Source of the DNA: Escherichia coli
GTDB taxonomy: Bacteria; Pseudomonadota; Gammaproteobacteria; Enterobacterales; Enterobacteriaceae
NCBI RefSeq assembly: GCF_013122565.1
Contig: NZ_CP053258.1
Direction: 5' to 3' (one strand)
DNA: 64,000 nt
The number at the start of each line of letters is the position of its first letter. Position 1 is the first letter of the stretch. The position numbers were made by a program, and so were the translations under genes. Under the pieces are notes generated by a model. That model did not search any database and had not been told where the DNA came from. It worked only from the letters and a program-made list of their open reading frames with translations. Positions 53,385 through 54,302 of this stretch are shown here, in pieces.

Positions 53385-54302
53385 GAATCTTGACCTTTTT
53401 TGCTGTTATCGCCACTCCCTGCCGTGGAAGTCAGCTTAGAACAATGTACTCCCCCAGGACGGTGTTTTGAAGGTCTGCAGAATAAGATTTTGCCAGAGGG
53501 GAAAGCTCGATTGTGCTGTTAATAACTTAATAATGGTAAAATAATGAGGTGTATATGCTTAATAAGTAATGTTATATAGTGAATTATTCTGATTGTTAAT
53601 TGTAAATGTGGTTTTTTTATCTGTAAGATAATTGTGTGAAAATGCCTCGTTTAAGAATTCACTACTGAATCGCGATGATGATATTTCCGCATTACGGAGA
53701 GTTTAACAGCGTGATGATTTCCGAGGTGTCGCAATGGGTTAAGGTGTGAAACTATTGTTAAGCGGAATTAATGAATGAGGATGATGCTAATTAATTATTA
53801 TTTAATATTCAAAAAGGTTTTGTTGTGCTTATTAATAATAGAAGATTACTTTGCCTAACATAACATAACTTTGCATCAGATAATTCGCAATGACCCTTAT
53901 AAATAAAAGGTTTTTGGGGTAAAATGCTCGGATAAATGACGGATCCCTGCTCTTGATGCCGCCTCACCATTGCTGTTTGTACGTGTTCGCGTATGACCAG
54001 CGATGCTGCACGAGAGTGGAACAAGGACTTACATTTACATTTATACAAACACGCGCATGTCATAAATAGAAAAGAGTGAGTAACTTAATAGATATGCGAT
54101 CCCTGAAGATATATTCTGTGGTCTACTTCAGGCATTATAACGGAACAATGTGAGTCGCTTTTTTAGTGCAACTCATATGCATTTTTACTTTCGTCCGGGT
54201 TCCGGATGAAACTGCCAGGGAGGCACATTACAAATGGAATTGCTTGTTTGTGTGTGCACAGCATTAACCAGCTCAGTATGAGCCGCCAGTAAGTGATAAT
54301 AT

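Follow-up and report, generated by a model that had tools for sequence, protein, structure and literature searches.

The 918 bp separating the divergent genes alaA and lrhA in the analysed stretch of Escherichia coli DNA (64 kb, hereafter the window) most probably serve both genes as one divergent regulatory region, made up of three functional parts and coding for neither a protein nor an independent small RNA. We put the probability of this reading at about 0.85. The first part, about 90 bp next to alaA, would comprise a sigma-70 type alaA promoter and a leader of about 52 nt that starts with a conserved hairpin, as suggested by sequence conservation. The second part is about 425 bp of AT-rich DNA upstream of both promoters, of fixed length and with a single conserved block (-187 to -127); going by published work, H-NS silences lrhA here, and Lrp, CpxR, OmpR and LrhA act on the same DNA. 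The third part begins at A53932, ends at the lrhA AUG and is transcribed as an untranslated leader of 371 nt. Binding of this leader by Hfq together with UhpU, ArcZ and RprA lowers LrhA synthesis and mRNA stability, and a compensatory mutation has proven that UhpU pairs beside the ribosome-binding site. Cleavage and trimming to stable stems would leave fragments of about 80 and 322 nt, presumably still bound to Hfq.

The region is already described in the literature, and the window holds no new kind of element. The additions made here are minor: a covarying alaA hairpin with an invariant loop, a conserved spacing of 471 bp between the promoters, and IS1 insertions upstream of lrhA.

Gene identity and composition of the intergenic region

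The flanking genes are:

52167..53384, minus strand: alaA ORF, divergent from lrhA
54303..55241, plus strand: lrhA ORF, divergent from alaA

The encoded products are 100% (AlaA) and 99.4% (LrhA) identical to those of K-12. Both genes carry the names alaA and lrhA in the RefSeq annotation of K-12 and of strain SCU-124, in the gene order yfbS-yfbR-alaA <> lrhA-nuoA, and neither annotation contains a feature between them. The gap spans 53385..54302, and its K-12 counterpart is 919 bp long. A first, sequence-only reading of the window had described a non-coding, AT-rich gap of about 900 bp between divergent alaA and lrhA, and this description proved accurate down to the coordinates. The GC content is 0.378 for the whole gap against 0.524 for the 64-kb window. 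Measured in steps of 200 bp, it is 0.30–0.43 inside the gap and close to 0.50 on either side. Ranked from the lowest GC upwards, the gap is number 4 of 1262 sliding windows of 918 bp, and all four lowest windows overlap it.

The same reading had called the region curved-looking, which was not borne out. AA/TT periodicity at 9.5–11.5 bp does not exceed that of dinucleotide shuffles, the observed value being reached by 12% of them in the upstream half and by 64–69% elsewhere. Nor was the phasing of A-tracts, a mark of intrinsic curvature, significant; 456 bp hold only 9 A/T tracts of at least 4.

The gap was found in 5425 of 5426 complete E. coli genomes, with an identity of 97.1–98.2%, and never at 99% or more over the full length. 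From this we take the window to stem from a near relative of the typical sequenced E. coli, not from one of these. The experiments cited below come from K-12 or EHEC, and the window strain differs by about 2% in the gap from every complete E. coli genome. Within the lrhA leader there are three substitutions relative to the published K-12 gBlock, in the areas of 54030, 53975 and 54121, and these leave the validated UhpU site untouched.

Conservation across Enterobacteriaceae

Comparison across Enterobacteriaceae had been proposed earlier as a check on the region, and it showed that arrangement, length and AT-richness are kept. A genome scan with LrhA returned 80 species, with the start of alaA included in 78 loci. 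alaA is divergent from lrhA in all 78 of these, and gap length ranges from 764 to 1140 bp (mostly 905–1013) at a GC content of 0.35–0.44.

These data bear on the idea that the gap is a leftover, either gained by horizontal transfer or decayed, for example a pseudogene or the scar of an insertion. A low GC content is characteristic of acquired DNA, and some strains carry IS1 in the gap. However, alaA and lrhA flank a gap of similar length and GC in every one of the 78 loci, it is present in nearly all complete E. coli genomes as given above, and it contains no ORF fragment with a family match. The conserved gene neighbourhood refutes this explanation, whose probability we consider negligible.

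A MAFFT alignment revealed four conserved blocks, at 53385–53474, 53745–53805, 53865–53925 and 54225–54302. In this order they coincide with the alaA promoter and leader, one upstream block, the core promoter of lrhA and the terminal ~78 nt of its leader. Outside these blocks identity is 0.25–0.45, including the leader body (53932–54220), which is near the level of unrelated AT-rich sequence. The distances between the elements are more constant. From the alaA -10 to the lrhA -10 the median is 471 bp (interquartile range 465–474), and the end of the upstream block is separated from the lrhA -10 by a fixed 114–115 bp, in both cases across the 80 species. The lrhA leader is long in every species (334–587 nt, interquartile range 382–434). 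The comparison serves mainly as a guide for dissection of the region, with about 250 of the 918 bp under sequence constraint family-wide and the promoter-to-promoter spacing held at about 471 bp.

The adjacent lrhA-nuoA gap is likewise long and length-conserved. Length conservation may therefore hold for regulatory gaps of this kind in general.

The predicted alaA promoter and leader

On the alaA side the following elements were identified:

53443..53471, minus strand: predicted proximal alaA promoter, from conservation, with -10 TACATT (53448..53443), a variable spacer of 17 bp, and -35 TTCAAA (53471..53466)
53385..53436, minus strand: predicted alaA 5' UTR, ~52 nt, from the conserved upstream promoter elements
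53414..53431, minus strand: hairpin ACUUCC-ACGGCA-GGGAGU at about +6 of the alaA leader, from conservation and covariation
53394–53397, minus strand: alaA Shine-Dalgarno sequence AAGG, 9 nt before the ATG
53478..53492, no strand: conserved Lrp-consensus-like box directly upstream of the alaA -35, matching YAGHAWATTWTDCTR with 2 mismatches, column conservation 0.6–0.8

Across the 80 species both promoter hexamers hardly change, unlike the spacer between them. This suggests a promoter of the sigma-70 type with a transcription start near 53436. A distal alaA promoter, TTAACA-17-TATAAC with its -10 at 53576..53571, has been proposed by others from SELEX data. It looks stronger than the proximal one, yet it is not conserved.

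The hairpin at the start of the alaA leader has a loop, ACGGCA, and closing CC/GG pairs that are invariant. Its six inner pairs are 93–100% paired among 65 distinct sequences. The pair 27:44 is AU in 42, GC in 12 and GU in 8 of them, and the outer pairs alternate among CG, GC and UA. In total 28 cells are changed on both sides of the stem, against 11.7 ± 2.3 in shuffles (0/500), a significance that is overstated because the sequences are related. Scanning metagenomes for the hairpin core CTTCCACGGCAGGRAG returned 120 stretches. Five of these adjoin an alaA homologue, and all five are enterobacterial. The remaining matches, which have no adjacent alaA homologue, look like chance matches to a 16-mer, and the scan is uninformative on any wider regulon.

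The DNA between the two promoters

The DNA upstream of both promoters contains:

53472..53896, no strand: AT-rich inter-promoter DNA, GC about 0.30–0.36, sequence mostly not conserved but length conserved
53745..53805, no strand: conserved upstream block TGTGAAAnnAtTGTTAAG..ATTAATGA..AATTAAT..TATTTAATATT, -187 to -127 from the lrhA start site
53820..53828, no strand: target of IS1 in at least 8 complete E. coli genomes, which carry TTGTTGTGC as a 9-bp duplication

Conservation of the upstream block is 0.56–0.68, compared to about 0.3 in its flanks. Between 53500 and 53900 the GC content of 0.30–0.36 lies well below the window mean of 0.524, as expected of a region silenced by H-NS, and H-NS has been reported to repress lrhA strongly in strain BW25113 and weakly in ER2738. 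Several other proteins have been linked to this DNA. ChIP identified lrhA as a direct target activated by Lrp, the OmpR ChIP signal rises in the lrhA-alaA gap, CpxR binds the lrhA promoter in EHEC, and LrhA itself acts on DNA upstream of lrhA according to published work. Shimada et al. (2014, PLoS One) listed the "920 bp-long lrhA-alaA" region as a long spacer with RNA polymerase (RpoD) SELEX peaks and many factor sites. The earlier expectation of multiple regulatory inputs thus holds at two levels, with UhpU, ArcZ, RprA and Hfq acting on the leader, and H-NS, Lrp, CpxR, OmpR and the RNA polymerase SELEX peaks on the DNA.

No transcription-factor binding site in the gap could be pinned down at base resolution. 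Consensus scans of the gap gave no CRP site and nothing convincing for CpxR, with only one CpxR-like site carrying 2 mismatches. Lrp-like sites were found at 53478–53492, the conserved box described above, and at 53577–53591; matches to the Lrp motif are weak evidence, such matches being cheap in AT-rich DNA.

Transposon insertions in the gap raise the expression of lrhA in E. coli and of pigU in Serratia. These insertions are consistent with a net silencing role of the upstream DNA. The natural IS1 insertion site lies 104–112 bp upstream of the lrhA start site, with the upstream block on one side of it and the core promoter on the other. U15A is one of the isolates carrying IS1. The element separates the upstream half from the lrhA promoter in some clinical isolates, which could help to explain differences in lrhA expression between strains.

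The lrhA promoter, start site and leader

Promoter and leader of lrhA are made up of the following elements:

53877..53925, plus strand: lrhA core promoter with CAGATAATTCGCAAT, CCTTATAAATAAAAGG (-35-like TTATAA at 53897–53902) and -10 TAAAAT at 53920–53925, conservation 0.6–0.7
53932..54302, plus strand: lrhA 5' UTR, 371 nt, the first base of the published fusion being A53932
53947..54019, plus strand: 5'-terminal stem-loop domain of the leader, local fold -32.7 kcal/mol
54223..54257, plus strand: hairpin A with conserved apical AUGGAAUUGCUU, from conservation and predicted fold
54256..54263, plus strand: GCACAGCA box at -47..-40, conservation ~0.9
54271..54283, plus strand: hairpin B, GCUCA-GUA-UGAGC, with stem changes in other genera, e.g. 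GGUCA/UGACC
54283..54290, plus strand: UhpU pairing site GCCGCCAGU, in which C54287 is the base altered in lrhA-M1
54291..54296, plus strand: Shine-Dalgarno-like AAGUGA, 6 nt before the lrhA AUG (54303), AGTGA being near-invariant in the 80 species

The start of the published lrhA-lacZ fusion, ATAAATGACGGATCC, maps to window position 53932 and thereby gives a 5' UTR of 371 nt. The first base of the PBAD-lrhA-lacZ fusion lies in ATAAATGACGG and the fusion primer begins with ATAAATGACGGATCCCTGCT; both place +1 at A53932. An "Unusually long 371 nt 5' UTR" of lrhA is also stated by Melamed et al. (2023, eLife; PMC10578931). In the -10 hexamer, located 7 nt upstream of the start site, T1, A2 and T6 are kept in 80 of 80 species. 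The long lrhA leader postulated from the sequence alone is thus confirmed by the published +1 and by a conserved -10.

For the complete leader of the window the predicted fold has a free energy of -112.4 kcal/mol (z = -2.6 against shuffles). The GCACAGCA box is the best conserved of the leader elements predicted to be single-stranded, and hairpin B recurs in folds made for individual species. For the final 100 nt of the leader, RNAalifold run on 69 sequences did not arrive at a consensus structure.

The leader could also fold back on its own ribosome-binding site, an anti-Shine-Dalgarno pairing of 54027–54044 with 54289–54311 keeping lrhA off. The minimum-free-energy fold of the window leader does contain an interrupted 18-bp helix between these two segments, and an RprA study reported a non-workable translational fusion to lrhA (Lalaouna et al., NAR 2018). 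On the other hand, the 5' partner segment 54027–54044 is not conserved. Accessibility of the Shine-Dalgarno–AUG region was compared between real and upstream-shuffled leaders of 29 species, with a mean difference of +0.03. It was lower in the real leader in 9 of the 29, and the trend runs in the opposite direction to that expected of occlusion (Wilcoxon p = 0.11); in K-12 both values are 0.58. Based on these controls with shuffled upstream sequence, a conserved occlusion of the lrhA ribosome-binding site is rejected, and self-inhibition of the leader by this helix appears highly improbable.

Pairing of small RNAs with the leader

It has been shown by Melamed et al. (2023, eLife) that UhpU, ArcZ and RprA repress an lrhA-lacZ translational fusion, and that McaS forms many RIL-seq chimeras with lrhA without an effect on translation. 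In the same study the compensatory pair UhpU-M1/lrhA-M1 restored repression. According to the gBlock and primer sequences, GCCGCCAGT is changed to GCCGCGAGT in lrhA (window C54287, position -16) and ACTGGTG to ACTCGTG in UhpU. The site GCCGCCAGU, with C54287, is unchanged in the window. We scanned the leader for duplexes in 24-nt windows and found the validated site among the best matches, with a UhpU duplex of -20.1 kcal/mol at 54271–54291.

In the same scan the GCACAGCA box was complementary to UGCUGUG of RprA, of McaS and of the 5' part of ArcZ, and CCAGGGA at 54214–54220 paired with the ArcZ seed. RprA, ArcZ and McaS are predicted from these duplexes to pair at the GCACAGCA box and nearby. 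For all three small RNAs several alternatives lie within 2 kcal/mol, and the scan gives no unique placement. In published work a pull-down with MS2-RprA enriched lrhA 744-fold, and the lrhA mRNA decayed upon RprA overexpression (Lalaouna et al., NAR 2018).

Hfq-bound fragments and the question of an independent small RNA

RNAs of 150 and 350 nt from the gap co-purified with Hfq (Bilusic et al., 2014, RNA Biol). They were found to belong to an lrhA transcript of about 1.5 kb, and the full-length mRNA accumulates in an hfq mutant. Furthermore, Term-seq data (Adams et al.) contain 3' ends on the lrhA strand at K-12 positions 2406933 and 2406691, the sequences in the table running 10 nt past the ends. 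Position 2406933 corresponds to window position ~54011, 1 nt past the inner stem of the 5' domain, and defines a fragment of about 80 nt. Position 2406691 corresponds to ~54253 (-50), 2 nt past the inner stem of hairpin A, and defines a fragment of about 322 nt. The end at -50 has a Rho score of 1.06 ("No") and an intrinsic terminator score of 3.75, borderline relative to the cut-off of 3.0. The position of both 3' ends agrees with cleavage and subsequent trimming to the stems, and the fragment of about 322 nt plausibly matches the Hfq-bound band of "350 nt".

The sequence-only reading had named the gap a candidate location for an unannotated small RNA, that is, an independent gene on either strand with its own promoter and terminator. 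The Hfq-bound RNAs of 150 and 350 nt were indeed first catalogued as intergenic, under "ig-lrhA-alaA", and "orphan" Term-seq 3' ends are present in the gap. However, both classes of fragments come from the lrhA strand and fall within the mapped leader, and the lrhA mRNA of about 1.5 kb is likewise picked up by a probe located upstream of lrhA. Moreover, conservation is only about 0.25–0.45 except in the promoter blocks and the 78 nt at the end of the leader. The gap contains 2 promoter-like sites where 3.0 are expected from shuffles, and a consensus scan detected neither an intrinsic terminator anywhere in the gap nor, within the leader, any hairpin with a U-run behind it. A search of the gap against Rfam at permissive thresholds gave nothing credible, the best score being 21.9 bits against a threshold of 64. 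Eight matches were returned at E ≥ 0.37, all of them eukaryotic snoRNA or miRNA models or a 14-bit STnc170 fragment, with no riboswitch or cis-regulatory RNA among them. What remains of the small RNA are the leader-derived, Hfq-bound fragments and the Term-seq ends, without an own promoter, terminator or Rfam family. We consider an independent small RNA gene very unlikely.

Coding potential of the gap

A leader peptide had been suggested as well, i.e. an upstream ORF whose translation controls lrhA. The window contains two candidates:

54234–54281, plus strand: candidate leader ORF of 15 codons, with a Shine-Dalgarno-like GGGAGG 12 nt upstream
54206–54292, plus strand: candidate leader ORF of 28 codons, ending inside the lrhA ribosome-binding site

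The good GGGAGG upstream of the 15-codon ORF and the location of its ATG within a conserved motif speak in its favour. Conservation between species does not support either candidate. Only 34 of 80 species have a start codon at the position of ATG 54234, and the ORF then runs for 4–22 codons or reads through; what is conserved at this position is GGAAUUGC rather than the ATG. The start at 54206 is found in 19 of 80 species, and those of other leader ORFs in 4–20 of 80. Insertions and deletions that separate the genera are not multiples of three. A tblastn search of all 29 ORFs of the gap against other species gave matches equally on both strands of the conserved blocks, and these matches therefore reflect conservation of the DNA. 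Among the entries listed in one E. coli ribosome-profiling table, none falls at the locus. No leader ORF keeps both its start codon and its length across the 80 species, so the leader peptide of the sequence-only reading was not upheld, and the chance that one controls lrhA seems to us very slight. A translated upstream ORF specific to the Escherichia lineage would be compatible with this comparison.

For the gap as a whole, the earlier impression of only short, unconserved-looking ORFs was correct. The longest is 84 aa and antisense to the lrhA leader, a Pfam search with the five longest gave no match, and outside Escherichia none of the ORFs stays open. Essentially, the gap yielded neither transcripts other than those of the two genes nor a conserved small ORF, and with this the novel half of the sequence-only reading falls away.

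Possible further roles and significance

The reading of the gap as a shared regulatory region leaves a residual chance of novelty, namely in the hairpin of alaA and in lrhA leader fragments that might serve as sponges. Taken jointly, these give a reading that, as far as we have found, has not been described. The alaA hairpin would be recognised specifically by a protein or an RNA that controls alanine transaminase synthesis or mRNA lifetime, rather than act as a passive 5' stabiliser; and the Hfq-bound lrhA leader fragments of about 80 and 322 nt would act in trans as sponges for McaS, RprA, ArcZ or UhpU. We regard this combination as speculative and rather unlikely. If true, the sponge role would account for McaS giving the most chimeras without changing lrhA translation.

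LrhA stands near the top of the hierarchies governing motility, fimbriae, RpoS and CRISPR-Cas, and its control region hence decides when cells swim, stick and defend themselves.

Comparison with known systems

The region is at the same locus as the K-12 lrhA 5' UTR and lrhA-alaA spacer studied previously (Melamed et al., 2023; Bilusic et al., 2014; Shimada et al., 2014). ATAAATGACGG, GCCGCCAGU and all conserved blocks are shared with K-12, the length is 918 compared to 919 bp, and the sequence differs within the 97.1–98.2% identity range seen for all complete E. coli genomes.

Like rpoS, csgD and flhDC, lrhA encodes a global regulator and has a long leader, on which several Hfq-dependent small RNAs act according to the literature. 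ArcZ, RprA and McaS are common to lrhA and these genes, and for lrhA their pairing is predicted near or upstream of the ribosome-binding site. Two characteristics of such hubs are present at lrhA, namely a start site far upstream and seed complementarity to UhpU backed by a compensatory mutation. The long upstream DNA with its many factor sites was grouped by Shimada et al. with csgD-csgB and nanC-fimB. The direction of control differs from that in rpoS, where ArcZ and RprA activate by opening an inhibitory hairpin, whereas lrhA is repressed by UhpU, ArcZ and RprA, and McaS binds without effect. Also unlike in rpoS, no conserved self-inhibitory fold was found in the lrhA leader among the 29 species.

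Orthologues of lrhA are known as hexA in Photorhabdus and Xenorhabdus, pecT in Dickeya and pigU in Serratia. ArcZ represses hexA by pairing at -50..-42 of the leader and pecT by pairing at -84..-58. The ArcZ site on the hexA leader compares with the position of the GCACAGCA box in the window, at -47..-40. The pairing sequences vary from genus to genus, and control of lrhA by UhpU has been described as a gain of the Escherichia lineage. Serratia shares the arrangement of the locus, pigU and alaA being divergent there too, and PigU rises upon insertions in the pigU-alaA gap.

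Promoter spacing and the predicted alaA leader

The distance between the -10 element of lrhA and the predicted -10 element of alaA is held nearly constant across 80 Enterobacteriaceae species, with a median of 471 bp and an interquartile range of 465–474. Despite this constant spacing, the sequence between the two elements is mostly unconserved. The distance from the conserved upstream block (53745–53805) to the lrhA -10 was 114–115 bp in every case.

53443–53925: stretch between the alaA -10 and the lrhA -10, with its counterpart in each of the comparison loci (L003–L082)

In the predicted leader of alaA, a comparison of 65 distinct enterobacterial sequences identified a hairpin at the extreme 5' end. 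In this set the loop, ACGGCA, is invariant and the outer stem shows covariation. No description of the hairpin was found in Rfam or in searchable papers.

53414–53431, minus strand: 5'-terminal hairpin of the predicted alaA leader

Divergence of the gap and of the neighboring proteins

Over its full length, the alaA–lrhA gap (53385–54302) is at most 98.2% identical to any of the 5425 complete E. coli genomes compared. The sequence of the window is therefore likely to derive from Shigella or from a side branch within Escherichia, and not from mainstream E. coli. The stretch with the second-lowest GC content of the window lies elsewhere.

~3101–4018: second-lowest GC stretch of the window, GC 0.388 over 918 bp

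LrhA (54303–55241) diverges far faster than its neighbors AlaA (52167–53384) and NuoA. Across the 80 species, identities were 74–95% for LrhA, 93–99% for AlaA and 86–100% for NuoA, save for one NuoA outlier at 74%. The LrhA of the window is only 94.9% identical to that of the GTDB "E. coli" representative (L003), as against 99.4% for K-12.

Like the alaA–lrhA gap, the gap between lrhA and nuoA is long, AT-rich and conserved in length, measuring about 625–640 bp in most of the 80 species. Among the Term-seq 3' ends tabulated by Adams et al. is a very strong "orphan" one at K-12 position 2405082, 10 nt before the nuoA start.

55242–55870: lrhA–nuoA gap, 629 bp, GC as low as 0.32

IS1 insertion upstream of lrhA

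At least eight complete E. coli genomes carry an IS1 at one and the same site, 104–112 bp upstream of where lrhA transcription begins (U15A, U12A, JKHS006, TUM14668, E07, EC65, TUM2826 and OZ039848).

53820–53828: IS1 insertion site with a 9-bp target duplication, TTGTTGTGC; junctions at 745/1514 in L087, a locus with IS1 in the gap

The insertion cuts the lrhA promoter off from the conserved upstream block and from ~435 bp of AT-rich DNA. Transposon insertions in the alaA–lrhA gap have been reported to raise lrhA.
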